Below, piece after piece: positions 4,783 through 49,562 of a stretch of DNA of 64,000 bases. Each line of letters opens with the position of its first letter. The first letter of the stretch is position 1. The notes beneath the pieces were generated by a model. The model saw nothing but the letters and a program-made list of their open reading frames with translations. It had not been told where the DNA came from and made no database searches. Origin of the DNA: an uncultured Gammaproteobacteria bacterium (GTDB lineage Bacteria > Patescibacteriota > Patescibacteriia > Magasanikbacterales > GCA-002688135); NCBI GenBank assembly GCA_964536205.1, contig CAZHVT010000002.1, positions 1,982 through 65,981 of the forward strand, in the 5' to 3' direction. The translations under genes and the position numbers were made by a program.

Positions 4783-4811
4783 TTGACAGGGTAATCAAAA
4801 AGACCTAGTAT
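4783..4811 (+). promoter_or_regulatory. sigma70-like promoter TTGACA-N17-TAGTAT for the VIT-vWA gene
   Basis: Consensus -35 and 17-nt spacing, about 45 nt upstream of the ATG. RBS AAAAGGAG. Confidence 0.45.
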
Positions 4812-4853
4812 ACAAACGGTTAATTCACAACAACAGAGCAAAAGGAGTGAGAA

Positions 4854-7208
4854 ATGACACAATCAGCTCTCGCAAGACGAATACAAGAACAAGTCGGACT
4901 GGCGATCGAACATCTGCCGCTACGATCAATGCATTTCGATGCAGAGGTTCGTGGGTTGCATGTTGGTGTACGTGTTACACAGACATTCAAAAACACACTC
5001 GACAATCCTGTGGAGGCGATTTACGTTTTTCCAATGGTTCCACAAGCTGCTGTGCTTGGTGCAAAACTGAAGATTGGAGACAAAACGATCGAATCAGAAT
5101 TGCGTAAGCGCGAAGATGCGCAAAAAGCATATGCTGAAGCTCGTGATGCTGGTCATCATGCGGCGATGGTAGGGCAGGAGCGTCCTAACATTTTCACTAT
5201 GTCTGTTGCAGGTGTTGAGCCTGGCGAGCAGATCAGTGTGGATATTCATTACATCGCGCCGGTCGACTGGCAAGATGGTGGTGGGCGCTTGCAGATTCCG
5301 CTTGTGGTTGCGCCGCACTTTGTGCCGGGGCATGCGACTGGAAAAACCGGTGGGGGATTTTCTATGGATACCGATGAGGTTCCTGATGCATCTCGCATTA
5401 CACCCAAATCGGTTCCAGAGGTGAGTTACAGCGCATCGCTTAAGTTGTCGCTGACTCCAGGATTCGAGGCTAAACTTGGATCTCCATCTCACAGCGCATT
5501 AGTTGTGTGTGACGTTGAACAGATTTGTGAAGGCGACACACGAATCATCGAACTCAACGATCTGCGTTGCGATCGCGATATCGTCATCACATACAAAACA
5601 CAAGATGAGCAGCCGACAATCGCGGTCGAGCGTCAGTCATTCATCACCACAAACGGCGAGACGGATGAACTTACGCTTCTGCAGATCTCCGCTGGATGCA
5701 TCGAAAATGAATCAGAACATCCTCTGGATGTCGCGCTTCTGCTCGACACATCCGGAAGTATGAGAGGTCAGAAAATTAACGGGTTGAAGAAGGTGGCAAA
5801 AAAGCTGCTTACTCGTTTAAGTACATTCAGTCGTCCAGTCCGAGTAACTATTCATCGATTCGCAAATTATTGTGAAGAGTTGTCTAAGTTAGCAGAGGTT
5901 GATGACTCACACTTTGATGTTATCGATCAGCTGGATGCCAGGGGTGGCACAAACGCAGGTCGTGCGATCACGGCAGTGATGGATGTCTTCAGGAGAGAAA
6001 ATAAGTATCATGAAAAATGCATTGTGTTGGTCTGCGATGGGCAGACGGATGACAGGCATTTCAAGGGTCTGGAGGGAGTTCGTATTCATTCTGTCGGAAT
6101 TGATAATGCGATTGACAACGCGACTCTCAAAGAATTTTCTGACATAACTGGAGGATCGTGCGAATGGATTCTGCCAGGCGAGGATTATGATGCAGCAGCT
6201 GCGCGAGTGGCTGGTATGGCATCTGGCCCTGTGCTGCGTGATCTGCAAATCCGTGGCTTGCCCGATAAGGCAAAAGTCGTGAATCTTGGTGATTGCTATC
6301 ATGCACAACCTCGCACGATCGGAATTCTCACTGCAGAGCCTATCGAAGGATGTGTTGTAGTTGGATGTGGTCCGGATGACACGCTATACGAGCGAGCAGT
6401 CCGTGTACCAAAAGAGACAACGACAACTCTCGTAGGTCCGCTATTTGGCAAGATGTTGCTGAACGAGCTTCAGGATCAATCTGTCAAAACTGAAACATCA
6501 CTTCGTTATGGCGTTCTGTGCAGTTCAACTGCGCTCATCGCTGTAAGTAAGAAAGATGTTCCGGGCGCAAAACCGGAAACCATCGACATTCCAGTTCTCA
6601 TGCCACATGGGTGGGAGTATGACGATCGTAGTGAGTTCGCGGTTCGTCGAATGTCAGTTGGTGTTGGTGGTCCAGCTCGCAGACGTAGAATTAGAAGATT
6701 GAGTGCTCAAGGCATTACGAGAAGAGCTATTGCGGGAGATGTTTTGAGCAAAGTATCCTATAGGACAGAAAATGCTGGCCCTCCGCGTCATGCAACCATG
6801 CAAGGCGCAAAGGAAGTCGATACTATCGATTACTCCGATATGTTGGGTGGCGGTTTGCTGGAAGATTCGGCAGGGATTTCAGCTGATGCGGATTCGAAGA
6901 AAGAAAAAGGAACTGCTGGATATTTCATCGAGCAAGCACTAATTCTTCTCAACGCGCTAGAGAATCGTCCGACATCAAAGCCTCTTCATGCACTCCATCA
7001 AGAACTCAAGATGCTAATTGCAGATTCTACGAAGTTCGCTCAATGGAGTGGTGAAGAGAAATCCCAACTCCTTCTGCTGATCGCGCAAATCGGACATGCG
7101 AATCCAGCCTATGCAATCAAGCCCAACGAGGTGTTGTTGCAAGAGCCAGCCGGACAATTCGCTCGACTCCATTGGATGCAGGCCAAGAAAATTCTCGGTC
7201 TCGCATAA
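4854..7208 (+). CDS. VIT (vault/inter-alpha-trypsin) domain + von Willebrand factor A domain protein
   Basis: N-terminal VIT-like region (EAIYVFPMVPQAAVLGAKLKIGDKTIESEL...). vWA MIDAS motif DVALLLDTSGSMRGQK. GC clearly higher than flanking genes. Confidence 0.75.
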   Translation: MTQSALARRIQEQVGLAIEHLPLRSMHFDAEVRGLHVGVRVTQTFKNTLDNPVEAIYVFPMVPQAAVLGAKLKIGDKTIESELRKREDAQKAYAEARDAGHHAAMVGQERPNIFTMSVAGVEPGEQISVDIHYIAPVDWQDGGGRLQIPLVVAPHFVPGHATGKTGGGFSMDTDEVPDASRITPKSVPEVSYSASLKLSLTPGFEAKLGSPSHSALVVCDVEQICEGDTRIIELNDLRCDRDIVITYKTQDEQPTIAVERQSFITTNGETDELTLLQISAGCIENESEHPLDVALLLDTSGSMRGQKINGLKKVAKKLLTRLSTFSRPVRVTIHRFANYCEELSKLAEVDDSHFDVIDQLDARGGTNAGRAITAVMDVFRRENKYHEKCIVLVCDGQTDDRHFKGLEGVRIHSVGIDNAIDNATLKEFSDITGGSCEWILPGEDYDAAAARVAGMASGPVLRDLQIRGLPDKAKVVNLGDCYHAQPRTIGILTAEPIEGCVVVGCGPDDTLYERAVRVPKETTTTLVGPLFGKMLLNELQDQSVKTETSLRYGVLCSSTALIAVSKKDVPGAKPETIDIPVLMPHGWEYDDRSEFAVRRMSVGVGGPARRRRIRRLSAQGITRRAIAGDVLSKVSYRTENAGPPRHATMQGAKEVDTIDYSDMLGGGLLEDSAGISADADSKKEKGTAGYFIEQALILLNALENRPTSKPLHALHQELKMLIADSTKFAQWSGEEKSQLLLLIAQIGHANPAYAIKPNEVLLQEPAGQFARLHWMQAKKILGLA

Positions 7209-7214
7209 GGGCAT

Positions 7215-7247
7215 AAGCTCTTCGACTACGGTCGGAGAGCTTTTTTT
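7215..7247 (+). terminator. intrinsic terminator
   Basis: AAGCTCTTCGAC-TACG-GTCGGAGAGCTT hairpin followed by T7. Confidence 0.55.
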
Positions 7248-7261
7248 GTTATAATCAGAGC

Positions 7262-9813: not shown

Positions 9814-9822
9814 AAGAAACAT

Positions 9823-9893
9823 AGGCGGGTCGGTTAATGGTAAACCACAGGTCTCCAAAACCTGGACTGCGAGTTCGATCCTCGCCCCGCCTG
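9823..9893 (+). tRNA. tRNA-Trp (anticodon CCA)
   Basis: Acceptor AGGCGGG/CCCGCCT, anticodon loop CTCCAAA, T-arm GCGAG-TTCGATC-CTCGC. No CCA is encoded. Confidence 0.8.
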
Positions 9894-9900
9894 TATCAGA

Positions 9901-9974: not shown

Positions 9975-10003
9975 TTGACAAACACGATAAATTATGATAG
10001 ATT
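9975..10003 (+). promoter_or_regulatory. sigma70-like promoter TTGACA-N17-TAGATT
   Basis: Same architecture as the promoters of the other GC-rich genes. RBS AAAAAGGAG lies before the ATG at 10072. Confidence 0.45.
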
Positions 10004-10071: not shown

Positions 10072-10893
10072 ATGGGTACTCGAAATCCTCAGTTCGATTC
10101 ATACGACACGATTCACGCTACCATGACAGTGTTGCGGAAAGCAGGTTTGTTCACTGATGGTCTGGATGCGATCCTTCGTAAAAAAGGTAATGCCAAGCGA
10201 GGAGTCGACGCTCTCATGCGCGAGTTCAAGCTCGATGGAGTCAACGAGTTCACACTCGATCTCGAAACGCAACTCGAGCGATTCGCAGAAGCACTCCCAA
10301 AGCTTCGACAGATCGGCTTCACCTTCATGGACAAGTCAGATGAAGAGGTGCTGCGAGAGCTCCGTGAAACAGCACCTGCCTGGCCCGAAGGTAAACGATG
10401 CTTTCGCTTCGTCCAAATCCGCGAGGGTGAGGGTGGCGAAGGTGTGCAAAAGACCTTCGATCTCCATAAGCAAATGATGTCACAAACATTCACACCCAAG
10501 TGGCGGCGCGGGGATCATATCAAAACAGATAAGGATCATCTGCGCCTACTCGCTGGCAACGAAACACACAAGACCTGCTTCGGCTGGGTCTGTGCGGACA
10601 TGGACTCCAACAGGCAGCGCAATTCCATCATTGCAGTGCGTGGAGATAGCTCTCTCGCCGACGAGATTTTGGCCTTCAACTGGCAGTTCCCCGCGTACTG
10701 CAAAGCGATCGATTATAAGGAGAATCCTGGCCTGTTCGCTGCGGGTTACGAGCTTTCAGTCGATGGCTGCGAGGACTGGAGCCATATGCCGCTCATGGGC
10801 CGCGATCTGGACACCGACGAGGTCGACCTGCTCGCCCACCACCGTAGCATCGACAACTCTGTCTACTCTGTGCCGTCTCGTCTCAGGGAGTAA
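10072..10893 (+). CDS. hypothetical protein (GC-rich, no recognisable motif)
   Basis: 273-aa ORF with strong RBS, promoter and terminator. Composition near 50 percent GC against about 35 percent for the backbone. Confidence 0.5.
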   Translation: MGTRNPQFDSYDTIHATMTVLRKAGLFTDGLDAILRKKGNAKRGVDALMREFKLDGVNEFTLDLETQLERFAEALPKLRQIGFTFMDKSDEEVLRELRETAPAWPEGKRCFRFVQIREGEGGEGVQKTFDLHKQMMSQTFTPKWRRGDHIKTDKDHLRLLAGNETHKTCFGWVCADMDSNRQRNSIIAVRGDSSLADEILAFNWQFPAYCKAIDYKENPGLFAAGYELSVDGCEDWSHMPLMGRDLDTDEVDLLAHHRSIDNSVYSVPSRLRE

Positions 10894-10950
10894 GGTACTC
10901 GGCATTCGGAATCTTGATCCTCGGGTAACTCAGCCCTTGGCCTTTGGTAT

Positions 10951-10981
10951 GTCCGCGACGATAGTCGCGGACATTTTTTTA
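10951..10981 (+). terminator. intrinsic terminator (GTCCGCGAC-GATA-GTCGCGGAC + T7)
   Basis: Perfect 9-bp stem followed by a T-run. Confidence 0.6.
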
Positions 10982-11969: not shown

Positions 11970-11998
11970 TTGACATGATGCATTTCTCGTGCTAGCAT
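11970..11998 (+). promoter_or_regulatory. sigma70-like promoter TTGACA-N17-TAGCAT, followed by a 9-bp perfect inverted repeat (12007-12025) that contains the mini-ORF MKIIFI
   Basis: Read directly. GAGGAG-N5-ATGAAGATCATCTTCATCTAG lies between the promoter and the RBS of the AAA+ gene. Confidence 0.5.
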
Positions 11999-12059: not shown

Positions 12060-13538
12060 ATGCGTAAAACAATGGAATATGTCGATATTGTCGGCAAGCG
12101 ACATGAAGTAAGGTGGAGCGAGTTATTGGAGGCAATTGAGCGCGTTCGTGCTTTGTTCTCTTCCGTGAAAAGGCGTTTTGTTGAAAGAGAGTCGGTCATT
12201 GATCAAATCAAACATGCCATGCTGTTGCGTGAGCATATTTTGATCAACGGACCATCTGGCGCAGCGAAGTCAATGTTGATTCGAGCGATTACCAAGGCGA
12301 TTACCAATGCTCGATTGTGGTCAATGGACTTGACTCGTTTTACGACAAACAGTCAGGTGTTTGGTGGATACGATGCTCGTCAGCTTCGTGAAACGGGACA
12401 CTCTATTCATTTGACCGAGTTTTCAGCCGCCGATGCACACTTCATTCAATTGGGTGAATTTTTCGATGCGCCTCCGCCAACACTACGAACGCTTCTCGGG
12501 TTGCTCAACGAGCGACGCATTAGAAATGGTCCGCAGTTGATCGAGCCGCCGCTGTTGACGGCGATTGGCGATACAAACTTCTCAATGGAAATGCTGACCG
12601 AAAAAAGTCAGCAGCAGCTGGCCGCAGTAGTGGATCGCTTCCTGTTCAGGGAAGAGGTTGATTATGTGGTCGAGCCAGCAAATCGACGTCAGATGCTCGC
12701 GATGAGTTTGGATCCCCGGGTCCAAGACAAACTTCCACAAGTATCACTCGATGATATTGTGATGATTTCTGGAGTCGTGAAAGGAATGAATCTGATGCTC
12801 GATCCGTACATCATCGATGCATATGAGGAGATGACTCGTCGGTACAGCGCATTGCGTCAAGAGAAAGGCGGCTTGAGAGTTTCAGATCGGCGCTATGTAC
12901 GCGGTGCACAGATCATGGAAGTTTCCGCGTTATTGCATGGTCGACAGGCGGTTACATTTGAGGATTTGGCGATTACGCGCTATGTGCTCGCTCACAATGA
13001 AAATGATGTTGATATGCTCATCGAGATCAAGAAGGGTGTTATTGGCACATGGGTAAAACGCGCATCTCGTCGTGAAATTGAATCTGAACTACATCGTCTC
13101 GCACAGGTCATAAAAGATCTACCAAAGAGTGATAACGTTGATATTGAATCCATGAAGCTGGATGAACTGAAGGCATTTGCATCTCAATTAGAAAAGATGC
13201 AAAGCTCGCTTCAAGAATTCAAAACAGATTCGCTTGAGGTGGGGCAAAAAGTTGCCGAGTGGACACGGGCGATTCTAGCTTTGCAACATCAAGCCGTGCA
13301 TCACGGAATTTCACTCATCGAACAGATGATTCCAGAGACGACAACGAACATGAGTGCTGAAACTGTGGGACCGGTTGGAAAGCAGGTGAATATAGCGCTG
13401 AATGAGTTGCGTAGTGTTCCAACACTAAGTGATGACTTAATTGTTCGTCAGTCTGAAGTGATGGTAAAGGCGTTGCAAGCTCGACATAATGTAGATTCTT
13501 CGATGGAGAATCTCGGTGTTGTGAGTAAGGAGGGCTAG
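12060..13538 (+). CDS. MoxR-like AAA+ ATPase with C-terminal coiled-coil extension
   Basis: Walker A ILINGPSGAAKS, MoxR-type LLTAIGDTN (the ATQNP-equivalent) and sensor region RVSDRRYVRGAQIMEVSALLHGRQAVTFEDL. The translated sequence is GC-richer than the backbone. Confidence 0.65.
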   Translation: MRKTMEYVDIVGKRHEVRWSELLEAIERVRALFSSVKRRFVERESVIDQIKHAMLLREHILINGPSGAAKSMLIRAITKAITNARLWSMDLTRFTTNSQVFGGYDARQLRETGHSIHLTEFSAADAHFIQLGEFFDAPPPTLRTLLGLLNERRIRNGPQLIEPPLLTAIGDTNFSMEMLTEKSQQQLAAVVDRFLFREEVDYVVEPANRRQMLAMSLDPRVQDKLPQVSLDDIVMISGVVKGMNLMLDPYIIDAYEEMTRRYSALRQEKGGLRVSDRRYVRGAQIMEVSALLHGRQAVTFEDLAITRYVLAHNENDVDMLIEIKKGVIGTWVKRASRREIESELHRLAQVIKDLPKSDNVDIESMKLDELKAFASQLEKMQSSLQEFKTDSLEVGQKVAEWTRAILALQHQAVHHGISLIEQMIPETTTNMSAETVGPVGKQVNIALNELRSVPTLSDDLIVRQSEVMVKALQARHNVDSSMENLGVVSKEG

Positions 13539-14570
13539 ATGGATCCTATTACGTTTTGGTTGTTAATGTCTGGCTTAGGAGGAGCTGGAGCTGCAGGAGC
13601 GGCTCTGTTGTATCGGTTGATGAAAGGTCCGAGACTACCTGAATTACCTCCAATGCCAGAACCAAAACCACCGGAAATTCCTGTAAGACAGGATGGTATT
13701 ATCGATGCAGAGGAGCTAGAAGAAGAGGAGGATGACTCTTTATTGAGCGACAAGGATGTCGTGAAGCAGATTGTTGGTGGCATAGGTTTTTCCGCGCAGT
13801 ACGTGCAGGTTGGCGAGCGAGTTGTCGGACAACGTTTTCTCGGTTATCGAGAAGAAGAATCTATATATCCTGATGACGACATGACAGTTCGACCAATACG
13901 AGATGTAGCTGAGATGGCTTCATTATTGGGCAGCGAGAATGCGCAAGATGATGATATATTGTACGCACGCATTGCACGTGGGGAAGCACTCGTTACAGCT
14001 TACACAACACAAGAAGAAGTGTTTGAAGATGTACACGAGCCAGTTATGGAAGCTCGGCGCAGAACACTGTATATTCTCCTTGATCTTTCGCCATCCATGT
14101 TTCCAAAACACTCTCGTTGGAGATGGAAGATTTGGGGACCGCTTGTGCTGATGCTTCTACAAAAAGCATTTCAAAATCAAGTTGTGTTTTTGATGAGGTA
14201 TTTTGGCGGAACGGTTTCAAAGTTGATGCGCGCCGTATCACAAGAAGAAGTTGCGAAACTTGAGCGATCTATCAGAAGTGCACAATGGATCTCCTCAACA
14301 GATATAACTGCTGCGGTATACACGGCACTACGGGATTTTGATGATGAAGAATACGACAATGCACAAGTTGTATTGATCACAGACGGGGAGCACAATCAGG
14401 GGACATTCAATCCATCGAAAGTGCGTAAGGCTTTTGATGATCGTAATGTCACATTACATGCGATCTTGCTCGGCGTTAAGAATGACGGATTGAGACAAGC
14501 TGCGCACAGTTACGTGCAAGTTGATCATCATGATCGCAGGGGATTATTTACCATAATCAATCAAGTATAA
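13539..14570 (+). CDS. membrane-anchored von Willebrand factor A domain protein, partner of the MoxR-like ATPase
   Basis: N-terminal TM helix plus Pro-rich linker. MIDAS motif LYILLDLSPSMF with downstream vWA-like beta-alpha pattern (VVLITDGEHNQG). Start abuts the stop of 12060-13538. Confidence 0.65.
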   Translation: MDPITFWLLMSGLGGAGAAGAALLYRLMKGPRLPELPPMPEPKPPEIPVRQDGIIDAEELEEEEDDSLLSDKDVVKQIVGGIGFSAQYVQVGERVVGQRFLGYREEESIYPDDDMTVRPIRDVAEMASLLGSENAQDDDILYARIARGEALVTAYTTQEEVFEDVHEPVMEARRRTLYILLDLSPSMFPKHSRWRWKIWGPLVLMLLQKAFQNQVVFLMRYFGGTVSKLMRAVSQEEVAKLERSIRSAQWISSTDITAAVYTALRDFDDEEYDNAQVVLITDGEHNQGTFNPSKVRKAFDDRNVTLHAILLGVKNDGLRQAAHSYVQVDHHDRRGLFTIINQV

Positions 14571-15106: not shown

Positions 15107-15976
15107 CTAGGAAAGTTTGACCTCTTTCCATTTGTCGCTGTCAGAATCACGCTTGTACAATCGAATGTACGAGCTTGTTTTTTCACTGCGCAGGCTGCGA
15201 CTCAAAAGGTGTTGCGCCTGCTTGAGTTCGGGGAAAACATCGGCATCAATGCTGATCGAAAGGAATCGATACAGATCCGGGCCGACTTTGAACGAAACAC
15301 GCTCGACGAGAATGTTTTCAAGAATCTCGATCAGAGCACGAGCTCTATCGTCTTCTTCATCCTGTCGCGTTTTGGCAAATCGATCAAAGAACTTGTTGAT
15401 TTGCTCTCTGGCTTCGTGAGCCAAAGTTGTATCGATGCGCGAGATATGGTTCACCAGCGCGACAACGCGACGCAAACCATCTGTACTCGTGAGTGAAATC
15501 TGTGATCGAAGTGATCCATCTTCATTGGTCAGCATGTCATAGACATTCGCTGTCAGAAACTCGTTTCGTGCGCGGAATGCTTCTACAACTTGATCATTGA
15601 GAGCAAACACTTGCGTCACGATATCATCCGTTCGACGATCAACATTCTCAAGTCGCGCAATGAGTACAGCGAGTTCAGTTCGCTGCTTCTGCAATTCAGC
15701 TTCTGATGCAGTGATATCTGCCCGGGCTGCATCACGTTCTTTCGTAAGTTCAACTGTCTCAGTTGACCAAGAATTAATAATATCTTTCAACCGTTGTGCA
15801 CGTTGCGTCGCGGTATTTTTCAGTCCAGCGAGTGATGCAGCAGCACCCAAGAACCGCTGGTATTTCTTAGTCCATTTCGCACGAGACTTTGCCTCTTTGT
15901 TGCGTAATCTCTCAAGAGATTTTTCAGTTGCGGCAATCGCGCGCTCCAACTGCTTTCGCATTTTTGCTGGCGTCAT
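15107..15976 (-). CDS. hypothetical coiled-coil protein
   Basis: 289-aa ORF, highly charged with heptad-like E/K/R/L pattern. No enzymatic motif. Confidence 0.45.
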   Translation of the reverse strand: MTPAKMRKQLERAIAATEKSLERLRNKEAKSRAKWTKKYQRFLGAAASLAGLKNTATQRAQRLKDIINSWSTETVELTKERDAARADITASEAELQKQRTELAVLIARLENVDRRTDDIVTQVFALNDQVVEAFRARNEFLTANVYDMLTNEDGSLRSQISLTSTDGLRRVVALVNHISRIDTTLAHEAREQINKFFDRFAKTRQDEEDDRARALIEILENILVERVSFKVGPDLYRFLSISIDADVFPELKQAQHLLSRSLRSEKTSSYIRLYKRDSDSDKWKEVKLS

Positions 15977-16316: not shown

Positions 16317-18812
16317 ATGGCAATAGCAAATCGAATCCCAATGCCATCTCATGAGGGGAGAAAAGAAGATGGTGAGCACAGATCGCGTGAGGCACAAGGA
16401 GCGCCAGTTGAAAGATTTCGACAAATCGTAAAATTATCTCCGAAGGTGTATGAGGAGTTAGTTGTGATTGAAAACGAAGTTGAATTGCCAAGCGAAATAA
16501 ATGAAGAGGATTGGGAGGGCGTGGATTTTTATGAATACATGGAGACAGTTCGAGTTGAAGAAGAGATGACGGAAATTGAACACAAAATTTTTACAACATA
16601 TGCATTAGAAGAAGTTGAGAGAATTACAGAATTATTGGCTGATGATTATGAAGAGGAGTTGATTGATGAATTAGAAGCAAGATATGGAGTTCCAAAAGAG
16701 GAAATCATGCATATACTTCTGGAGGAAAAAGGATTGTTGGGAGATAATGATGCGACATACATTGTTGTTGAAGCTGTAAAAGCTCGATTGCAAAATCGGG
16801 TAGAAGAGCGTCAAGGAAGAGAGAAAATGCCTACTGCTCAGGAGAGAGCTGAATTAGATGAATTGCGTGAAATTAATAAACAGATGAAGGAGGAGCAAAA
16901 AGAGAGGGAGCAAGATCACCGACGAGAACAAACACTCAGTATGATCGATGATCTATTTGAAAGTTTGCCAGAAAGAATCAGAGAAGAAGATCAGGTGCAA
17001 TTCGAGTCGCTGGAAAAAGTTTATAGCGATACATTGCAAGAAGGAATAAAAGATGACGAAGCACAGGAAAATCAAGACAGATTATTTACAGAAATTCTTG
17101 TCGAATTAAGGAGGATGGAAGAGTTGGCAGCACAAGAGAGGGGTGAGGAGGCAGAATATCAACCACCAATTTCCGATAGAGATCCTGGTTATGTTCGTCA
17201 GATCATAAATCGCATAGCTGATTCACGAGCAGGTAGATATCTTGCGGTTGGGATTGAGGGATTAAAATTGGTATATGGGGCAGCAGCAATAGGTCAAGAA
17301 GCGCATGGTATGGCATTTGGATCAGATGAGATAGTCGAAGTATCAACAAGAGGTGGTGATCTAACAGATAAAATAACTTCCGGATCTGGAAGAGCGGTTA
17401 CAGTTAAGGGCGCACCTGCAATTGCAGCACATGATGCCCAGCGTAGAGGCACAGAAACTTATGAGGATAGGGTTGAGATCACACCACAAGCTCCAAAGTC
17501 AGAAACAATATATGGTGAGCAAGAAGTAAGTCATGCAACATTGCATTTCGATACCATGCCAATGTCACCAGATTTTAAAGTTAAGGGCCATGAGAAATTT
17601 ATTGATGCAGGTCCGCTCATTGAATATATTCGCGGACAAATAGAAGGAAGAGAGGATTTAGAAGGACAGAAAATTGACATTCAATTAGAAGGACGCGCTT
17701 CAATTGATGCGCGAAGATGGGCGTATGAAAAAAATGAGAAGTTGGCAGGAAAGCGAGCTGAAATGGCAAAATTGCAAATTGAACAATTACTTGCAAAAGC
17801 ATTTCCGGGAGTTGAGATTAATATTACAATTGCTGATGGCGCGGCAACAGTTGAGTTGGATGGACAGAAATTGACTCATGAGCAAGCAAGGGAGCAAATG
17901 AAACTATTATTGGGCGTAACATCTGAAAAAGATTTACAAAAGAAATTGCGGCAGTTTAGAGCGGGGGATATGACAGGATTTGATGCCGCACAAATTGCAG
18001 CAATGGAGCAGGTTGTCACAAATGCACGTGGTGTGTTAATGGATATTACATTCACGGGGCAATCAGTAGTTGAATCTGAAAGAAGTGTGCCTCAGCCAGA
18101 CGAAGTGAAGGTTGTGAGAACAATGACAGATGGAGCGCAGCGAAGAGGAAGAAGAGATGGAGAGCCAACTCCAGACCTACCCCCAACACCACCAGAGCAA
18201 GGTCAGGCTCCAGCAGAAATTTTAACAGGTCATCGCATGGATCCCGTCATTAAAGAAGAATTTGATGATACAAAAGCTCCAGAAACAGAAATGACACAAG
18301 AACCTGTGCCTGGCGATAATCCAGATACATACATTAGAGAAAATCAGCAGGATATTCACGAGATAACAAATCAATTAGAACGGACAAGATATATACGTCG
18401 TGCGAGAAGAAAGATTGATGATGTTGTGGATCCACCACCCCCACCGCCACCTCCACCGCCTCCACCACCAGAACCAGAATACAGGAGAGCCCAAGGACAA
18501 CAATCCGTAGAACTCGGGCCAATGAAAACAGAACGAGTTAATTTACGCACACAGGGAGTGGATGAGAGGGATGAAATACAATTTTCCGGTTCTGTAAATC
18601 AGGATTCAGGAATGGGAACATCCAGCAGAAGAAGGGAAAAGCAGATTAGATACGACGAATTTGGAGATGTCATTCCTCCAGATAAAGAACAGCCAATAGC
18701 TCGTGTACAAAGAGAAAAGGGTAGGGATCGCCAAGCTTCAGAAAAACAAAAAGCACGAGAACTGCGCCGAGCACGCCGACAAAGACGACGAGAAGAGAGA
18801 GGAGAAAATTAG
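16317..18812 (+). CDS. large (831 aa) highly acidic, Glu-rich low-complexity protein with a poly-proline tract and an Arg-rich C-terminus
   Basis: Uninterrupted ORF. A run of 13 consecutive Pro codons at about 18426-18470. No catalytic motif recognised. Confidence 0.55.
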   Translation: MAIANRIPMPSHEGRKEDGEHRSREAQGAPVERFRQIVKLSPKVYEELVVIENEVELPSEINEEDWEGVDFYEYMETVRVEEEMTEIEHKIFTTYALEEVERITELLADDYEEELIDELEARYGVPKEEIMHILLEEKGLLGDNDATYIVVEAVKARLQNRVEERQGREKMPTAQERAELDELREINKQMKEEQKEREQDHRREQTLSMIDDLFESLPERIREEDQVQFESLEKVYSDTLQEGIKDDEAQENQDRLFTEILVELRRMEELAAQERGEEAEYQPPISDRDPGYVRQIINRIADSRAGRYLAVGIEGLKLVYGAAAIGQEAHGMAFGSDEIVEVSTRGGDLTDKITSGSGRAVTVKGAPAIAAHDAQRRGTETYEDRVEITPQAPKSETIYGEQEVSHATLHFDTMPMSPDFKVKGHEKFIDAGPLIEYIRGQIEGREDLEGQKIDIQLEGRASIDARRWAYEKNEKLAGKRAEMAKLQIEQLLAKAFPGVEINITIADGAATVELDGQKLTHEQAREQMKLLLGVTSEKDLQKKLRQFRAGDMTGFDAAQIAAMEQVVTNARGVLMDITFTGQSVVESERSVPQPDEVKVVRTMTDGAQRRGRRDGEPTPDLPPTPPEQGQAPAEILTGHRMDPVIKEEFDDTKAPETEMTQEPVPGDNPDTYIRENQQDIHEITNQLERTRYIRRARRKIDDVVDPPPPPPPPPPPPPEPEYRRAQGQQSVELGPMKTERVNLRTQGVDERDEIQFSGSVNQDSGMGTSSRRREKQIRYDEFGDVIPPDKEQPIARVQREKGRDRQASEKQKARELRRARRQRRREERGEN

Positions 18813-19915: not shown

Positions 19916-20386
19916 ATGAATAAAGTATACGCAACATTTGATAAGATTTTCATTCATGAGGTGAAGAGGTTGGCGCCGATCACGTCTCGAGTAGCACTAG
20001 CTATTATATTTATTTGGTTTGGCGCGATGAAAGTGATTGCGATGAGTCCGGCCAATCCTCTCGTGCAAGCACTGCTACAGAAGATGTTGCCGTTTGTATC
20101 ATTTGAAACATTCATTATAAGTTTTGGATTATTTGAAGTTCTCATTGGAATGTTGTTTATCATTCCTCGTTGGGGTCGCATTGCAATTCTATTGCTTGCA
20201 TTGCACATGATAACAACCATCCTTCCATTATTCCTCTTACCTGAAATTGCATGGCAAGGATTCTTACTTCCAACAATGGAAGGGCAGTACATTATCAAGA
20301 ATATTGCGATTGTTGCATTGGGTATGGGGGTGATCGGAACATTTCATCCAATGAAAAAAATTGACAAAAAAATAAACAAAAGATAA
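19916..20386 (+). CDS. small polytopic membrane protein (DoxX/YkgB-like guess)
   Basis: Four TM helices. Family assignment is only a guess. Confidence 0.4.
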   Translation: MNKVYATFDKIFIHEVKRLAPITSRVALAIIFIWFGAMKVIAMSPANPLVQALLQKMLPFVSFETFIISFGLFEVLIGMLFIIPRWGRIAILLLALHMITTILPLFLLPEIAWQGFLLPTMEGQYIIKNIAIVALGMGVIGTFHPMKKIDKKINKR

Positions 20387-20545
20387 CATGTAGTCACAAT
20401 TAAAGAGCTATCAAGAGTGTGGCGAGGGACAGGCCCTATGACCCACCGGCAACTTGCGTAAGCGTAGTGCCAATTCCTCCTCGAGAAATCGAGAAAGATA
20501 ATTATTTATGCAACGCCTTCCTGTGGGCGTTTTTATATTTTCAGT

Positions 20546-27496: not shown

Positions 27497-27506
27497 ATCC
27501 ATCACG

Positions 27507-32978: not shown

Positions 32979-33007
32979 TCATCAATGTGTCATGCGAGCT
33001 AGAGATT

Positions 33008-33073
33008 GTCATCCCGGCGTAGGCCGGGATCCACGTCTCTAGAAGCATGGATCCCGGCCTTCGCCGGGATGAC
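33008..33073. repeat. 70-bp-class palindromic repeat, copy A (GTCATCCCGGCGTAGGCCGGGATCCA-N14-TGGATCCCGGCCTTCGCCGGGATGAC)
   Basis: Read directly. Each arm contains an inner CCCGGC/GCCGGG hairpin. Confidence 0.7.
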
Positions 33074-33081
33074 ATTAAAAT

Positions 33082-40130: not shown

Positions 40131-40157
40131 TTAGCACTCACATAGGGAGAGTGCTAA
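40131..40157 (+). promoter_or_regulatory. CIRCE operator (TTAGCACTC-N9-GAGTGCTAA), HrcA binding site
   Basis: Perfect match to the CIRCE consensus inverted repeat. Confidence 0.8.
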
Positions 40158-40943: not shown

Positions 40944-41454
40944 AACAAAAGACACGACCAACGAGTCATCCCGTAGTCGTACGGGATCCACCAAGAAGAA
41001 ATCAAAAAAAGATACTGAGCAAGAAAGAGATGAGTATTTATTGGGATGGAAAAGAGCATTAGCAGATTATGAAAATCTGAAAAAAGATCTACACATCCAG
41101 AAGCAACACGCGCGTGAATCTGTCACCGCAGATATCGCACAAGCATACCTCCCCATTCTCGATCATCTGCAATCCGCAACCAAAAACACACCAGATATTC
41201 CAGAAGCAAAAGAGTGGTTCACCGGTGTCGGATTCATTGCACAGCAATGCGCAGATGTACTCAAAGAATTCGGAGTAGAGCAAATTGAGGCTGAAGGAGA
41301 ATTCAATCCCGAACTACACGAAGCAGTAGGAATGGAAACACACGAAGAAATGGAGGACAATATAATCATTAAGCAAACACAAGCAGGATTTAAACTAAAG
41401 GATCGAATCTTGCGCCCAGCAAAAGTAATTGTAAATAAATTAAACAACGAATAA
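40936..41454 (+). CDS. grpE: nucleotide exchange factor GrpE
   Basis: Coiled-coil N-terminal part and C-terminus GFKLKDRILRPAKVIV. Overlaps hrcA by 8 nt. Residues 10-18 are encoded by a palindromic-repeat arm. Confidence 0.75.
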   Translation: MNKTKDTTNESSRSRTGSTKKKSKKDTEQERDEYLLGWKRALADYENLKKDLHIQKQHARESVTADIAQAYLPILDHLQSATKNTPDIPEAKEWFTGVGFIAQQCADVLKEFGVEQIEAEGEFNPELHEAVGMETHEEMEDNIIIKQTQAGFKLKDRILRPAKVIVNKLNNE

Positions 41455-41462
41455 CTAGAAGT

Positions 41463-41529
41463 GTTATTCCGTAGTCGTACGGAATCCATCTCGGGAAAAG
41501 GCATGGATCCCGTACGACTGCGGGATGAC
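41463..41529. repeat. palindromic repeat copy B, variant subfamily (GTTATTCCGTAGTCGTACGGAATCCA-N15-TGGATCCCGTACGACTGCGGGATGAC)
   Basis: Read directly. The right arm is the near-exact inverse of the arm inside grpE at 40965-40990. Confidence 0.6.
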
Positions 41530-41561
41530 AGTCTAACTAATCGCTAAACGCTAACAAATAT

Positions 41562-44802: not shown

Positions 44803-44810
44803 TACAAGTT

Positions 44811-44877
44811 GTCATCCCGGCGCAGGCCGGGATCCATCTTGATAAAAGGTATGGATCCCGGCCTGCGCCGGGATGAC
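44811..44877. repeat. palindromic repeat copy C (GTCATCCCGGCGCAGGCCGGGATCCA-N15-TGGATCCCGGCCTGCGCCGGGATGAC), perfect
   Basis: Read directly. Sits between the lipoprotein gene and dnaJ. Confidence 0.75.
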
Positions 44878-44888
44878 AATAAGAATAT

Positions 44889-45944
44889 ATGAGTAAAGAT
44901 TACTACAAAACTCTCGGAGTCGAACGATCAGCAACTGCTGACGAGATTAAACGTGCCTTCAGAAAGCAAGCTCATGAGCATCATCCCGATAAGGGCGGAG
45001 ACGAAGCAAAATTCAAGGAAGTAAACGAAGCATATCAAGTATTATCCGACGACCAAAAAAGGGGACAATACGATCAATTCGGATCTGACTTTCAAAATGG
45101 AGGAGGCTTCGGAGGTTTCGGACAAGGCGGATTTTCAGGAGACTTTTCGCAATTCGCTGGCGGATTTGGAGATATTTTTTCAAGTTTCGGATTTGGCGGA
45201 GGAGGCAGAACAAGAACTGCACGCGGTCAGGATGTTGTCGTAGATTTAGAATTATCATTACACGATGTTGCGTTCGGAATTGAGCGAGAATTAAGTTTAC
45301 ATAAAAACGATCTCTGTGATGACTGTTTAGGAAGCGGTGCAAAAAAAGGAACAAATTTAAAAACATGTGCAGAGTGTCATGGAAAAGGACAAACCGTGCG
45401 TGTGCAGCAAACTATTCTCGGTGCAATGAAAGCGGCGCAAGTTTGCAATGAGTGCCAAGGACAAGGACAAAAGCCAGAACAAAATTGTAATACCTGTCGT
45501 GGAGAAGGGTCATACAAAAAAACAGGAAACTTCAATATAAAAATTCCAGCAGGAATTGACAATGGCGAACAAATCAGATTGCGTGGAAAAGGTGAGGCTG
45601 GACCGCGCGGTTCAGAAGCAGGGGATTTGTATGTTCGTGTGCGCGTGAAACCTCACAAGATTTTAACACGTCGCGGATTTGATATTTTCTCTCGGGTCAT
45701 GGTTCCATTTACTACGGCTACTTTAGGAGGAGAGGTTAATGTAGAAACAATCGACGGAGAAATCGGAGTCAAAATCCCAAACGGCACACAAGGCGGACAA
45801 ACCATCAGATTACAAGACAAAGGAATAAATCATCTCTCTGGAAACGCGCGCGGAGATCACTACATTGAAGTACAAATCGAAGTCCCCAAACGCCCGTCTC
45901 GAAAAGCAAAAAAACTCCTCAAAGAACTTGAAAACGAATTATAA
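44889..45944 (+). CDS. dnaJ: molecular chaperone DnaJ
   Basis: J-domain with HPD (YYKTLGV...HEHHPDKGG), a G/F region and four CxxCxGxG zinc-finger repeats. Confidence 0.85.
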
Positions 45945-47048: not shown

Positions 47049-48770
47049 CTATCTATGTGGACGCATGTCGATGAGGCTGCACTGGATTTCTTGTCTTCCG
47101 TTGTAGGAATTAATGCCAAGTCTATACACCACATCAACACGATCACCAAGGTTAAACTTTGTGACATATTCAGCCTTTCCAAAACCAACAAACTTCAACA
47201 TATTCCCATCATCATCAACAAGTTGCATAATAATAGTCGATCCAGAATTCCCAACAACTTGCGCATGAGCAACCTCAACATTTCGAGAGAGAAAAACAGG
47301 TTCCTCGTTTTTCATTCCATGAGGTTCAAGTTTTTGTAGATCGCGCACAAGCTCCCATGTAACATCACAAAATCGCAGCTCACAATCAACATGAAATTCA
47401 GGATCATCATGCACACCTTCCATCGCAGAAACAATCTTGACCAACTCCTCCTCAAAGTAGGGAAGCAGGCTTGGGTCTTTTAATGAAAATCCGCAAGCCT
47501 GCGGATGACCTCCATACTTTTCCAAATACTGTGAAGCAACATCGAGCGCACGAACGATATTTACATTGTTTACGCTCCTTCCAGAACCAACGACAGTTCC
47601 ATTTCGACTAGACATCACCAAAGCAGGTTTTTGATATGCATCTTTCAGTCTTCCGGCAATTAACCCGACTATTCCGCTGGGCCAATCATCATGATATGCA
47701 AACAAAATAGGGTTATCTCTCTGCGCCTCACTTTCAACTTGCTCCTTCGCTCTAGCAAGTGCAGATTTTGTAGATGTCTGTCGTCTGTTATTTATCGTTT
47801 TTATTTCCAACATCAAATCCTCTGCAACTTTCATGTCGTTCGCCCGAAGCAAATCAAAAGCAATGCGAGGATCTCCCATTCTTCCAGGAGCATTTATTTT
47901 CGGACCGATGCCAAATGAAAATGTTTTAGGTCCAAAATCATCATTACGACGATCCTTCAATAAGATCTCAAATCCTAGGCGAGAAGTACGGGCCAAACGT
48001 TCAATTCCATACTTTGCGATAATTCGAGACTCGCCAAGAAGAGGAACCATATCCGCAATTGTCGACATCGCAGCAACATCTAACATCGAATACAAAAAGT
48101 GCTCAACAGATTCAGGCGCAGGCTGACGATCTATGTTATGCGCATGCAACAATAATCCATGCGCAAATTTAAATGCCACGCCACCACCAGCCAAAGATTC
48201 ATCCGGATATGGCTCATCCGGAAGTTTCGGATGAAGTGTAGCATGTGCTGGAGGAAGGTTATCCTTAAATTGATGATGATCAGTTACAATCACATCAACA
48301 CTGTTATCCTGCAAATACTTCACCTCATCAATATTAGAAATTCCACAGTCAATACTAATCACAACCCCAGCCTTATCAGCTACAAATTTCTCTGCTGTGT
48401 GCATGCTCATGCCATATCCATCCTCATCACGATGCGGCAAAAATACATGAACTTCTGCTCCAAGTGCAACAAGGGTTTCAAGAAGAATAACAGAACCACC
48501 AATCCCATCAGCATCATAGTCCCCATGAATCATAATCAATTCCTTTTTCTCAATCGCTTTAAAAACACGCTCACAAGCTTTCGTCATATCAGAAAACAAA
48601 AAAGGATCATGCAGCTGATCCAAAGAAGGGGAGAGAAAAGCCGAAACATCAGAAACCTCACGTTGAGAAAGTAGATCCAAAACAACCCGATGAATATCAG
48701 GATGCGCGGAAATAAAATCTCCCGGCGCACCCTCCGATACACGCCATTTTTGGTTTTCAAATGAGGTCAT
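47049..48770 (-). CDS. recJ: single-stranded-DNA-specific exonuclease RecJ
   Basis: DHH family motifs (MIHGDYDADGI, DCGI, VIVTDHHQ) followed by a DHHA1 region (GGGH). Confidence 0.8.
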   Translation of the reverse strand: MTSFENQKWRVSEGAPGDFISAHPDIHRVVLDLLSQREVSDVSAFLSPSLDQLHDPFLFSDMTKACERVFKAIEKKELIMIHGDYDADGIGGSVILLETLVALGAEVHVFLPHRDEDGYGMSMHTAEKFVADKAGVVISIDCGISNIDEVKYLQDNSVDVIVTDHHQFKDNLPPAHATLHPKLPDEPYPDESLAGGGVAFKFAHGLLLHAHNIDRQPAPESVEHFLYSMLDVAAMSTIADMVPLLGESRIIAKYGIERLARTSRLGFEILLKDRRNDDFGPKTFSFGIGPKINAPGRMGDPRIAFDLLRANDMKVAEDLMLEIKTINNRRQTSTKSALARAKEQVESEAQRDNPILFAYHDDWPSGIVGLIAGRLKDAYQKPALVMSSRNGTVVGSGRSVNNVNIVRALDVASQYLEKYGGHPQACGFSLKDPSLLPYFEEELVKIVSAMEGVHDDPEFHVDCELRFCDVTWELVRDLQKLEPHGMKNEEPVFLSRNVEVAHAQVVGNSGSTIIMQLVDDDGNMLKFVGFGKAEYVTKFNLGDRVDVVYRLGINSYNGRQEIQCSLIDMRPHR

Positions 48771-48776
48771 GAAATT

Positions 48777-48902
48777 CGTAAAGCGTAACTCGTAATGCGT
48801 AACTCGGGAAATGTATCGCGAAGCGATAATTTATAGATCGTCGCCTTGCGACACTTTTTACGCTTTACGCTTTACGCTTTACGCTTTACGCATTACGAGT
48901 CA
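48777..48902. repeat. inverted heptamer-array element: (TAAAGCG/TAACTCG/TAATGCG/TAACTCG) ... core with ATCGCGAAGCGAT palindrome ... (CGCTTTA x4, CGCATTA, CGAGTCA)
   Basis: Read directly. Four perfect CGCTTTA tandem units at 48861-48888. The upstream array is the inverse complement. The core palindrome is shared with the element at 3297-3380. Confidence 0.6.
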
Positions 48903-48910
48903 CGAAAAAA

Positions 48911-49033
48911 TTAGTACCCAAATCCACCACCACCCACAAAAGCTGGTAGAATTGTAATACCAACAAGCGCGACAGTACTAATCGTCACAAAGATAATCTT
49001 GAATATCTTTTTCTGCTTTTTTGTCATCATAGA
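48911..49033 (-). CDS. possible small membrane protein (about 40 aa; C-terminal part of a longer track ORF)
   Basis: MMTKKQKKIFKIIFVTISTVALVGITILPAFVGGGGFGY. The upstream part of the 157-aa ORF is antisense to the Cys-rich gene and was rejected. Confidence 0.25.
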   Translation of the reverse strand, partial: SMMTKKQKKIFKIIFVTISTVALVGITILPAFVGGGGFGY

Positions 49034-49130
49034 AGTGTATAGTAGCATATCTGGAAAAAACACGAAATAGCAGGATATTGAGGGTGGGGTTGACAGGAAG
49101 GCGAGATTATGATAAAAAAAGGAGGATTTC

Positions 49131-49562
49131 ATGGAGGGAAAAATGTCAGGGAAACATGTGAGAACAGGTGCTGAAGAGCGAATTAATTGTGAGGATTGCA
49201 AAGGGACATGCATAGTCCCGAACACTGAATTCGTGGATTGTGGGGAGTGCGGCGGTGTACCGAATGTCTGCGATGTGTGTGAAGGTGGCGGGCAACTTGA
49301 GGGAGATGATGGCTTCGCGGAAGATTGCCACAAGTGTAGTGGAAGTGGTAAGAGGCGATACAAGTGCAAGCCATGCGGTGGCACAGGAAAAATCGAGCGC
49401 GAGGGCGATGGGACGCCTTGTCATGAGTGCATGGACATGGGAAGCGCCTGTAGCTTCTGCGAGGAGTTCGAGTGTAGTGGTTCGCCGTACTGCCAGAACT
49501 GCAATGAGTGTGGACACTCATGTAGCTGTCCCGAAGGCCAGCGAATCGAAGCCGAATTCTAG
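49131..49562 (+). CDS. cysteine-rich protein with multiple CxxC / CxxCxGxG zinc-finger-like repeats (143 aa)
   Basis: 24 Cys. Repeats CEDCKG, CGEC, CDVC, CHKCSGSGK, CKPCGGTGK, CHEC, CSFC and CQNCNEC. Strong RBS AAAGGAGG, promoter-like TTGACA upstream, GC-rich. Confidence 0.5.
   Translation: MEGKMSGKHVRTGAEERINCEDCKGTCIVPNTEFVDCGECGGVPNVCDVCEGGGQLEGDDGFAEDCHKCSGSGKRRYKCKPCGGTGKIEREGDGTPCHECMDMGSACSFCEEFECSGSPYCQNCNECGHSCSCPEGQRIEAEF

Follow-up and report, generated by a model that had tools for sequence, protein, structure and literature searches.

Within a 64-kb stretch of contig CAZHVT010000002.1 (hereafter the window, to which coordinates refer, on the forward strand unless stated otherwise), we found two kinds of protein-coding gene that differ in base composition and in translation signals. 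Gene content and the closest genomes place the window in a genome of the Parcubacteria, within the Candidate Phyla Radiation (CPR, or Patescibacteria). A dispersed class of 11 GC-rich genes in 8–9 units, making up 18% of the window, carries strong Shine–Dalgarno (SD) sequences, whereas the backbone, about 80% of the genes, uses almost none. The explanation that we favour, with a probability of roughly 0.55, is that the GC-rich genes are self-contained cassettes of a flexible, fast-evolving CPR gene pool, transcribed with the housekeeping sigma factor and translated from SDs, in a genome whose core is translated independently of SDs and partly from leaderless transcripts. Two kinds of protein-coding transcription unit would thus coexist in one genome, an SD-less backbone and GC-rich SD-led cassettes. 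Each cassette would combine a near-consensus sigma-70 promoter, a leader, an SD and an intrinsic terminator, and would depend for its expression on the housekeeping sigma factor, without a dedicated regulator.

Composition and translation signals

The GC content of the whole window is 0.425 and that of the backbone about 0.41, with ordinary genes clustering at 0.38–0.43; the backbone value of about 35 percent given in an initial annotation of the sequence was not borne out. That annotation had flagged six dispersed units as compositionally foreign, and all six are indeed GC-rich (0.45–0.58). They encode a protein with VIT and vWA domains (VIT-vWA, GC content 0.489), the orphan protein hyp273 (0.540), a MoxR-type ATPase matching the bpMoxR profile (0.471) with a vWA partner (0.451), a second vWA protein, vWA414 (0.500), with hyp212 (0.463), hyp443 (0.576) and the zinc-knuckle protein CxxC143 (0.532). 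GC content at third codon positions (GC3) is 0.38–0.63 in the flagged units, compared with a backbone median of 0.336. This excess is synonymous: the amino acids of the class, combined with the codon preferences of the backbone, predict a GC3 of about 0.33, and we therefore rejected amino-acid composition as its source. Codon usage in the class and the backbone differed for CTG (0.22 versus 0.06), AAG (0.50 versus 0.25) and TTC (0.62 versus 0.35).

We ranked the 59 genes of the window by GC content and scored the SD of each as the energy of its duplex with ACCUCCUUA. Twelve genes had a GC content of at least 0.45, and 11 of these showed a duplex energy of −7.2 or lower together with GGAG or GGAGG 5–9 nt before the ATG, the exception being HU. 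Only one of the remaining 47 genes, hyp276, reached −7; its SD-like sequence overlaps a TATAAT located 7 nt before the ATG and probably lies outside the transcript. With HU counted as backbone, a canonical SD was present in 11/11 class genes and 1/48 backbone genes (p = 4e-11). Translation signals are the real discriminator of the class, and the strong GGAG-type ribosome-binding site (RBS) claimed earlier for every flagged unit was found at each. Three further genes, for a DUF3164-like protein (0.474), PyrF (0.501) and an HD_4 hydrolase (0.460), show all the GC, SD and promoter features of the class; the original list of six, each real and distinctive, was thus incomplete. The broader proposal of a dispersed class, distinct in composition and architecture and made up of non-housekeeping families (vWA, MoxR, FHA-like, zinc-finger), proved correct.

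The backbone genes have a different signal near their start codons. A TAnnnT hexamer lies 4–11 nt before the start in 13/34 backbone genes, compared with 4–7/34 at control offsets and 0/9 class units; genes with a −10-like hexamer close to the ATG include PGI, MsrA, hyp183, hyp276 and hyp156. Across 221 backbone open reading frames (ORFs) from the window and the CPR loci described below, TATAAT-like hexamers were 2.2-fold enriched 4–11 nt upstream, and none of the 45 GC-rich SD-led ORFs of the same set had one at this position. These placements suggest that part of the backbone has leaderless transcripts or SD-independent initiation. The SD core of class genes was kept in 8/8 orthologue pairs while the surrounding untranslated region (UTR) diverged; this conservation suggests that the ribosome can still read SDs.

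Two SD-poor groups offer comparisons. SD-poor Bacteroidota resemble the window in having a backbone without SDs and differ from it in that the SD-led minority here is coupled to a GC excess; a few genes in SD-poor Bacteroidota retain strong SDs, for special control, which is a loose parallel to the selected dual regime considered below. Within the Parcubacteria, the anti-SD motif was found in only 48% of 16S sequences (Tsurumaki et al. 2022, RNA; PMC9297842), with which the SD-less backbone of the window agrees. Likewise, the backbone genes here resemble those of SD-poor Parcubacteria in making no use of SDs, but in the window strong SDs have been conserved in a defined minority of the genes, where they are tied to a GC excess. 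We found no description in the literature of such a dichotomy in CPR between SD-led GC-rich genes and a leaderless backbone.

A rise in GC3, a strong promoter, an SD and a terminator could also be the ordinary marks of genes for the most abundant proteins. The near-consensus promoters, strong SDs and clean terminators would fit high expression, as would the preference for C-ending pyrimidine codons (TTC, TAC and ATC) and a promoter common to tRNA genes. However, G-ending codons are raised as well, and translational selection in AT-rich genomes is not known to raise these. DnaK, GrpE, DnaJ and LepA lack the features, as do the ribosomal proteins S12, S7 and L28 in L019, a locus with a distant hyp443 homologue, and HU, the sole GC-rich backbone gene (0.461), has no SD. 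Members of the class are also orphans, lost in relatives and the fastest-evolving genes, whereas highly expressed genes usually evolve slowly. We regard high expression as a quite unlikely explanation.

Promoters and co-regulation

The cassettes share a compact layout of TTGAC[AG], a 16–17-nt spacer, TAnnnT, a 5′ UTR of 24–93 nt, GGAG or GGAGG, and an intrinsic terminator. A full promoter (TTGAC[AG]-N16-18-TAnnnT) was present within 140 nt of the start in 8/9 class units and in 1/34 backbone genes, the comparison being limited to the 34 that have their own intergenic region (p = 5e-7). The terminators reported after the flagged units are there too, though backbone genes also have terminators.

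The initial annotation had proposed that the flagged units share one promoter type, TTGACA-N17-TAGnnT, and may be co-regulated. This motif occurs four times in the window against 0.21 expected (19-fold; 0/100 shuffles reached four), at 4783, 9975, 11970 and 23901, each 42–88 nt before a flagged start codon. The complete motif thus stands before four units; the unit at 26165 has TTGACA-N17-TATGTT and that at 49131 has TTGACA with a poor −10, the initial annotation having allowed for TTGACA alone. Moreover, the same −35 and spacing precede native tRNA-Tyr (4425, TATACT), tRNA-Thr (8575), metK (20361) and hrcA (40101). Because tRNA-Tyr carries TTGACA-N17-TATACT, the promoter type is native, and because all four of these genes use full −35/−10 promoters, such promoters accompany leadered transcripts in general. 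The promoter of the class reads as an ordinary sigma-70 consensus.

The metK promoter (TTGACA-N17-TAACAT) is followed by an S-adenosylmethionine (SAM)-I riboswitch (RF00162, 20405–20504, 67 bits). The hrcA–grpE operon has a TTGACA-N17-TATACT promoter directly followed by a perfect CIRCE operator, TTAGCACTC-N9-GAGTGCTAA (40131–40157). At the gathering threshold, Rfam matched only tRNAs and the metK SAM riboswitch, with no riboswitch in the long 5′ UTRs of the GC-rich genes. The riboswitch control of metK (20361–20504) is a regulatory feature retained in a minimal CPR genome.

The G of TAG was kept in the VIT-vWA promoter of the relative L009 (TAGTAT), but the promoter of the vWA414 orthologue in L018 (TAATCT) and that of the hyp273 orthologue in L010 (TGTAAT) have lost it. 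TAG-type −10 elements also precede backbone-type genes, at small39 in L010 (TAGTAT) and in L019, and the association of TAG with the class was not significant (4/8 versus 0/5, p = 0.10). On these three grounds we rejected the TAG-type −10 as a regulatory signature. Co-regulation is likewise unsupported, because the promoter is generic, the G was lost in two of three orthologue comparisons and the association falls short of significance.

These promoter data bear on a rival explanation, that the six units are a recent, co-regulated set acquired from GC-rich donors, with a dedicated TTGACA-N17-TAGnnT promoter and a role as an NTP-dependent conflict or signalling system. The over-represented motif, found upstream of flagged units only, speaks for it, as do the fast evolution of the genes, which conflict genes share, and the two units that follow tRNA genes, one of them with a copy of the tRNA-Tyr 3′ end nearby. 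Against it stand the unconserved G, the TAG elements of backbone-type genes in relatives, and the use of the same consensus promoter by tRNA-Tyr, tRNA-Thr, metK and hrcA. Genus-level relatives also have orthologues at the same loci, and the nearest named homologues are from CPR. Together with the protein data given in the last section, we consider this set unlikely.

Divergence and recurrence of the class in CPR genomes

The PGI of the window is 84% identical to that of 'Parcubacteria group bacterium ARS125' (L009) and 70% identical to that of a second relative (L010). In L009, L010 and L018 the corresponding loci hold orthologues of class genes, which are still GC-rich and SD-led and have homologous promoters, at 41–84% protein identity. 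Backbone proteins are mostly 84–96% identical to those of L009 or L018, compared with 84% for PyrF, 77% for HD_4, 66% for vWA414, 57% for hyp212, 55% for VIT-vWA and 41% for hyp443. An independent syntenic pair of loci (L020 and L021) gave the same picture, with VIT-vWA the most diverged protein (45%, versus 56–84% for its neighbours). Judged by these orthologues, the class genes are not recent imports. The suggestion that they were horizontally acquired thus survived in part: some behave like flexible-genome genes (in L010 the MoxR–vWA operon is absent and VIT-vWA decayed; a tRNA-Tyr 3′-end copy is present in the window), but a recent foreign origin is not supported, given the same-locus orthologues and the CPR affiliation of the named relatives.

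Sharp GC steps at the gene borders, and a record for L010 mislabelled as Gammaproteobacteria, raise the question of a chimeric assembly or of binning contamination from a GC-richer organism. However, the same sequence was assembled independently in several JGI, ENA and Logan metagenomes, so the layout of the window is not chimeric. The arrangement is identical across assemblies made independently of one another, with other samples and pipelines, related species have the same genes at the same positions, and the promoters, UTRs and terminators of the class lie within tens of bases of backbone genes. An artefact is extremely improbable.

Several of the families are rare. We found three homologues of hyp443 among 5.8 billion proteins, 16 homologue clusters for hyp273 and eight representatives for hyp212, the named ones all from Parcubacteria or Uhrbacteria. 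Homologues of VIT-vWA form about 50 clusters at 37–50% identity, and their named members belong to Uhrbacteria, Falkowbacteria or Patescibacteria; match scores drop sharply to non-CPR proteins, at 28–32% identity. In genomes of 0.53–0.59 GC, the homologues of hyp273 have the composition of their hosts, and GC-richer carriers of these families therefore exist.

We scanned metagenome contigs with an alignment of CPR VIT-vWA proteins and compared the GC content of each gene with its flanks. The difference was +0.07 to +0.16 in 16/16 CPR loci, with backbones of 0.34–0.55 GC, and nearly all of these genes were SD-led; in seven non-CPR loci it was mostly 0.00–0.03, with one at 0.07. Among 249 ORFs from 18 CPR loci, in which the first ATG was taken as the start codon wherever annotation was lacking, SDs were associated with a GC excess of at least 0.05 (odds ratio 17, p = 3e-15). 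Class members in these other loci include PilB/GspE, a thermonuclease, LemA, flotillin, PspC and another vWA protein. Because all 16 CPR loci show the excess, the signature is a recurrent property of a gene class and not the decaying trace of one transfer.

In the explanation that we favour, pool genes would be gained, lost or decayed between close relatives and would diverge faster than their neighbours, and lineages seem to exchange at least VIT-vWA, at a locus that stays the same. The pool would retain its GC excess and SDs in every host, unlike the fading mark of an import from a GC-rich donor. This upkeep of the GC and codon signature might come from continual exchange with GC-richer, SD-using CPR lineages, from GC-biased gene conversion, or from both. 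In a neighbour-joining tree of VIT-vWA, the window and L009 proteins are sisters, and the L020 protein groups with non-syntenic GC-richer lineages, apart from that of the syntenic L021, which hints weakly that VIT-vWA was replaced in situ in L020.

In some respects the cassettes resemble genomic islets or moron-like cassettes: they have atypical GC content and codon usage, their own promoter and terminator, a patchy presence and fast evolution, and two of the units lie by tRNA genes, with a tRNA 3′-end repeat. They differ in being one or two genes long, with no integrase, transposase or phage genes, and in being long-term residents at fixed loci. Their GC excess does not fade and, for VIT-vWA, recurs in all 16 CPR loci, and the class here is also set apart by SD-led as opposed to SD-less initiation. 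Viral-contig scans with the DUF3164-like protein and with the VIT-vWA and hyp443 alignments gave no relatives, and we rejected a phage or mobile origin.

A number of points weigh against the favoured explanation. The class was delimited after inspection of the data, from one 64-kb window, and the comparisons elsewhere covered flanks of up to 10 kb, short of any whole genome. The hexamer enrichment that suggests a leaderless backbone is about twofold. The window contains no rRNA gene, and we infer a functional anti-SD in this host solely from SD conservation. Core genes such as that for the PilB/GspE ATPase belong to the GC-rich SD-led class elsewhere, which makes a purely accessory label unfit. 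In L019, a distant homologue of hyp443 lacks both the GC richness and the SD; the property thus does not hold universally for every family. Exchange itself meets difficulties. A neighbour-joining tree at 35–50% identity is weak evidence for it, and fast vertical evolution would explain the window and L009 VIT-vWA proteins, which are sisters in that tree. Neither gene calls nor viral-contig scans turned up integrase, transposase or phage relatives. No lineage among the loci examined has a VIT-vWA gene GC-poorer than its host, although random exchange predicts some. Selection accounts for an excess that persists in every CPR lineage no less well than exchange does.

Selection is the basis of the main rival explanation, in which native CPR genes are kept GC-rich and SD-led, and SD translation is reserved for a small regulon switched at the ribosome. 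The VIT-vWA excess, which is always positive and tracks host GC in 16/16 CPR lineages, would be expected under such dual initiation, as would the retention of the SD in all eight orthologue pairs despite a diverging UTR and the GC–SD association across 18 loci. Between the window and L018, the upstream DNA of hyp443 remains 81% conserved while protein identity has dropped to 41%, and the class elsewhere holds core functions (PilB, flotillin and PspC). On the other hand, there is no known mechanism that selects G-ending codons (AAG, GAG and CTG) in an AT-rich genome. Native genes that are probably highly expressed (DnaK, GrpE, S12 and S7) lack both features, as does the L019 homologue of hyp443, and the patchy loss of members marks them as dispensable. 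We consider selection-maintained dual initiation a serious but rather doubtful alternative.

A more general reading, which we offer as possible but tentative, is that SD-poor Parcubacteria have two initiation regimes, a leaderless or SD-independent core and a CPR-wide, fast-evolving class whose GC richness and SDs are actively maintained in all lineages; this class would comprise VIT-vWA and other vWA modules, orphans and, in other lineages, PilB, flotillin and PspC. Such a class would mark a compartment that is separately controlled, at the level of the ribosome, or separately evolving, through recombination or GC-biased conversion, and would not be foreign DNA. Atypical GC content is routinely taken as a sign of recent horizontal gene transfer (HGT), whereas here VIT-vWA lies 7–16 GC points above its host in 16/16 CPR loci, irrespective of host GC, and the excess accompanies a switch from SD-less to SD-led initiation. 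If the pattern is genome-wide, it would call for caution where composition is used to call HGT or to filter bins of CPR genomes, since exactly these genes could be dropped, and it would affect gene callers, since these train one RBS model per genome. It would also provide a simple signature by which uncultured episymbionts could be searched for fast-evolving genes, possibly with roles in host interaction or conflict, and a natural system in which to ask why SD-poor ribosomes keep or lose the anti-SD.

Gene content of the cassettes and neighbouring features

The flagged units had been described as one module set with the components of an NTP-dependent conflict or signalling system. When we compared the GC-rich proteins of the window by BLAST with the 249 ORFs of the 18 CPR loci, only one neighbour of VIT-vWA recurred, a divergently oriented homologue of the DUF3164-like protein in L045 (43% identity). 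With this as the only recurrent neighbour, we rejected a single dispersed system, and the module set was not supported: the units are separate in relatives too, and only HD_4, vWA414, hyp212 and hyp443 form a contiguous, conserved cluster. Functionally, the cassettes would be independent units, including VIT-vWA, the conserved HD_4 cluster, and the single genes hyp273, DUF3164-like, that for the zinc-knuckle protein, and pyrF.

The MoxR–vWA operon is driven by a promoter at 11970–11998 (TTGACA-N17-TAGCAT with TGn). The MoxR-type AAA+ ATPase gene (12060–13538, SD GGAG) matches the Pfam profiles bpMoxR (PF20030; 118 bits, E = 3.7e-34, cut-off 27), AAA_5 (61 bits) and AAA_lid_8, and is RavA-like by NCBIfam (E = 7e-30). 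Its partner, a vWA protein of 343 aa (13539–14570, SD AAGGAGG), begins with the base that follows the stop codon of MoxR and consists of a Gly/Ala-rich hydrophobic N terminus, a Pro-rich and acidic linker and a vWA domain with DLSPS, with no domain after it. The vWA match is below the Pfam cut-off (VWA, 21.5 versus 23.8 bits), but there is agreement among four vWA-type families, and the protein also matches the vWA region of cobaltochelatase. With VIT-vWA and vWA414, this brings to three the units in which domain searches confirmed the predicted vWA domains. The hydrophobic N terminus is a probable membrane anchor. In L010 the operon is absent, and unrelated genes lie between the conserved small39 and hyp164; hyp164, which follows the vWA partner in the window, is a backbone-type protein with four transmembrane (TM) segments and is present also in L010.

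The pair resembles RavA–ViaA and CoxD–CoxE in having an AAA+ MoxR (AAA_5 and AAA_lid_8) directly followed, in one operon, by a vWA protein with DxSxS. Those pairs adjoin their own client genes (lysine decarboxylase and CO dehydrogenase, respectively), whereas the window pair has no adjoining client gene. It also differs in the probable N-terminal membrane anchor of the vWA partner, in the bpMoxR subfamily as the best Pfam match of its MoxR, and in its occurrence in a CPR genome and absence from the close relative L010.

The bpMoxR match and the adjacent vWA core, as well as the fast-evolving genes around the pair, recall the ternary conflict systems of Kaur, Burroughs, Iyer and Aravind (2020). 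Such systems need a third component: VMAP, iSTAND, FtsH, or a beta-propeller of roughly four blades on the C-terminal side of the vWA domain together with a TPR or propeller protein (Kaur et al. 2020, eLife; PMC7159879). In the window the vWA protein ends with its vWA domain and the pair has neither a third component nor an effector or effector-associated domain (EAD). No extra domain fused to either protein was detected by Pfam, NCBIfam or PADLOC, and a PADLOC-DB 2.0 scan of ten window proteins gave no qualifying match, the only matches having E of about 0.005. We rejected ternary membership because the third component and effectors were not found, and assignment to a known defence system because PADLOC gave no match. 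On sequence evidence, the MoxR operon is filed as a basic MoxR–vWA chaperone pair and not as a ternary conflict system.

These results complete the case on the co-regulated conflict set, to which the bpMoxR match and the FHA-like fold of hyp212 (below) lend some support. The search for PADLOC systems and for VMAP, iSTAND, FtsH, beta-propeller or effector domains found none, and the units are not adjacent in other CPR genomes, save for the DUF3164-like neighbour in L045. The proposed NTP-dependent conflict system is thus unsupported.

The conserved cluster includes the HD_4 hydrolase (RelA/SpoT-type HD; 209 aa, 23215–23844, reverse strand, SD GAGG), which is divergent from vWA414 and forms a unit at 23215–23897 with the promoter TTGACG-N17-TATATT; this unit was absent from the earlier list. 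The vWA414 operon has its promoter at 23901–23929 (TTGACA-N17-TAGTGT). vWA414 itself (414 aa, 24018–25262, SD GGAGG) matches VWA with 68.1 bits and has a metal-ion-dependent adhesion site (MIDAS) of the form DRSGS. Next comes hyp212 (25264–25902), which has a Cys4 zinc ribbon at its N terminus, an FHA-like beta sandwich at its C terminus and a terminator at about 25921–25948.

We assign the C-terminal FHA-like fold of hyp212 with moderate confidence, from a predicted structure. The AlphaFold2 model has a predicted local distance difference test (pLDDT) score of 78–90 for residues 141–212 and 63 overall. A Foldseek search of the PDB returned FHA domains as its top seven matches (APLF, 5w7w, E = 2.6e-4, TM-score to target 0.59), with Rad53, GarA and PNKP lower. 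The Pfam FHA profile was not detected in hyp212 even at E ≤ 5, so the FHA domain proposed for this unit held at the level of fold and not of sequence profile. The canonical phosphothreonine-binding residues of FHA domains are G-R ... S-x-x-H; in the alignment of the hyp212 family G106-R107 and S137-R138 are invariant, and the canonical His position holds G, A or S.

Upstream of hyp443 (region 25999–26071) there is a perfect 9-bp inverted repeat, CTTAGTGTA-N5-TACACTAAG (25999–26021), located 22 nt before the −35 of the promoter TTGACA-N17-TATGTT (26043–26071). The repeat is partly conserved in L018 and is a candidate operator. hyp443 (26165–27496, GC3 0.63, SD GGGAG, terminator at about 27505–27533) has an all-alpha structure model with no significant fold match. 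PDB sequence searches with hyp212, hyp273 and hyp443 gave no matches at E ≤ 1. The composition of the cluster suggests that it may act in metal-dependent (MIDAS) and phosphopeptide-dependent protein–protein signalling.

VIT-vWA (784 aa, 4854–7208) has its promoter, TTGACA-N17-TAGTAT, at 4783–4811 (conserved in L009), its SD, GGAG, at 4844–4847 and its terminator at 7215–7242. It matches VIT with 102 bits and VWA with 56.8 bits, and its MIDAS motif DxSxS (D298/S300/S302) is invariant. No signal peptide or TM segment was seen in it, and the protein is apparently cytoplasmic. Its layout, in which VIT lies at the N terminus and precedes a MIDAS-bearing vWA domain, is that of the inter-alpha-trypsin-inhibitor-like VIT-vWA proteins (NCBIfam TIGR03788, 'marine proteobacterial sortase target'). 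However, the match (216 bits over residues 27–589) is far under the family cut-off of 551 bits, neither a signal peptide nor a sortase signal was seen in the window protein, and the CPR proteins form a specific clade with a C-terminal helical extension of about 200 aa. In L010 (9183–9842) the gene is a promoterless C-terminal remnant that is still GC-rich (0.57), a case of gene decay in progress.

The VIT-vWA start lies 292 bp after tRNA-Tyr(GTA) (4478–4561), which has its own promoter (TTGACA-N17-TATACT, 4425–4453), and the hyp273 start lies 177 bp after tRNA-Trp (9822–9894). Several units had been placed beside tRNA genes; this applies to these two and not to the others. A copy of the tRNA-Tyr 3′ end (4708–4735; 18 nt exact at 4711–4728, 28 nt at 86%) precedes VIT-vWA and resembles an att-type footprint. 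As in a tRNA-integrated genomic island, VIT-vWA and hyp273 sit directly 3′ of tRNA genes; unlike in such an island, tRNA 3′-end repeats do not bracket VIT-vWA, as there is no third copy in the window. Among the Pfam matches precomputed for genes called on the matching contigs, which together span the entire window, there was no integrase or transposase family.

The 3′-end copy closes a GC-rich insert of about 170 bp downstream of tRNA-Tyr (4562–4760) that L009 lacks and that may be an integration or excision footprint or a decayed tRNA duplicate. In L009 (6852–7226) the anticodon loop of tRNA-Tyr is interrupted by a group I intron (RF00028, 45.6 bits, slightly below the gathering score of 50; E = 1.6e-10, over the full model), which is why ARAGORN missed this tRNA; the tRNA-Tyr of the window has no intron. 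L009 also has a 2.4-kb insert between tRNA-Thr and DsbA (2623–5041) that is absent from the window. It contains a 162-aa ORF and a gene for a 645-aa vWA-like protein, with backbone GC content and no SD, and is another tRNA-adjacent variable site.

The remaining class genes stand alone. hyp273 (10072–10893, GC3 0.62, SD GGAG) has a promoter at 9975–10003 (TTGACA-N17-TAGATT), 81 nt after tRNA-Trp, and a terminator at 10949–10974. The gene for the DUF3164-like coiled-coil protein (15107–15976, reverse strand, SD GGAG) has the promoter TTGACA-N17-TATTAT at 16037–16009. The pyrF unit (21587–22370; coding sequence 21642–22370) has the promoter TTGACG-N16-TACAAT at 21587–21614 and the SD GGAG. CxxC143 (49131–49562; unit 49090–49562) has the SD AGGAGG at 49120–49125, repeated zinc knuckles of the CxxCxGxG type and a weak match to the zinc-finger region of DnaJ. 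Its promoter assignment is uncertain, with TTGACA at 49090–49095 and a poor −10 (TAAAAA). There are two possible starts, each with an SD (AGGAGG-N5-ATG at 49131 and GGAGGG-N4-ATG at 49143); if TTGACA (49090) and TAAAAA form the promoter, transcription would start at or downstream of the first SD. On either side of the intergenic region between recJ and CxxC143 there are TTTACGC heptamers and their complement.

There are further features in the window. A family of palindromic repeats of about 70–90 nt (TTGTCATCCCGGCGnAGGCCGGGATCCA ... TGGATCCCGGCCTnCGCCGGGATGACA) occurs at 33006–33075, 40963–40991, 41461–41553, 44809–44901, 53884–53976, 55787–55815 and 57457–57534. Copies terminate some 10 nt upstream of start codons in the backbone (NDH2, DnaK, DnaJ, DUF4956 and GT2b), and fragments are present in L018; the family could be an element similar to repetitive extragenic palindromes (REP) or miniature inverted-repeat transposable elements (MITE), or a common 5′ hairpin. 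Short intergenic tandem repeats occur at 48770–48910, 4365–4390 and 29431–29456; they comprise the TTTACGC heptamers near CxxC143 and AGAAGTA-type repeats before hyp690 and after DsbA. The large orphan protein hyp831 (16317–18812) has no Pfam match and is encoded by a gene of backbone composition with a strong purine skew (GC skew +0.34, AT skew +0.28). Finally, CotH kinase-like, VTC-domain and DUF4956 genes cluster at 51453–54636, perhaps as a module related to polyphosphate, something unusual for a CPR genome.

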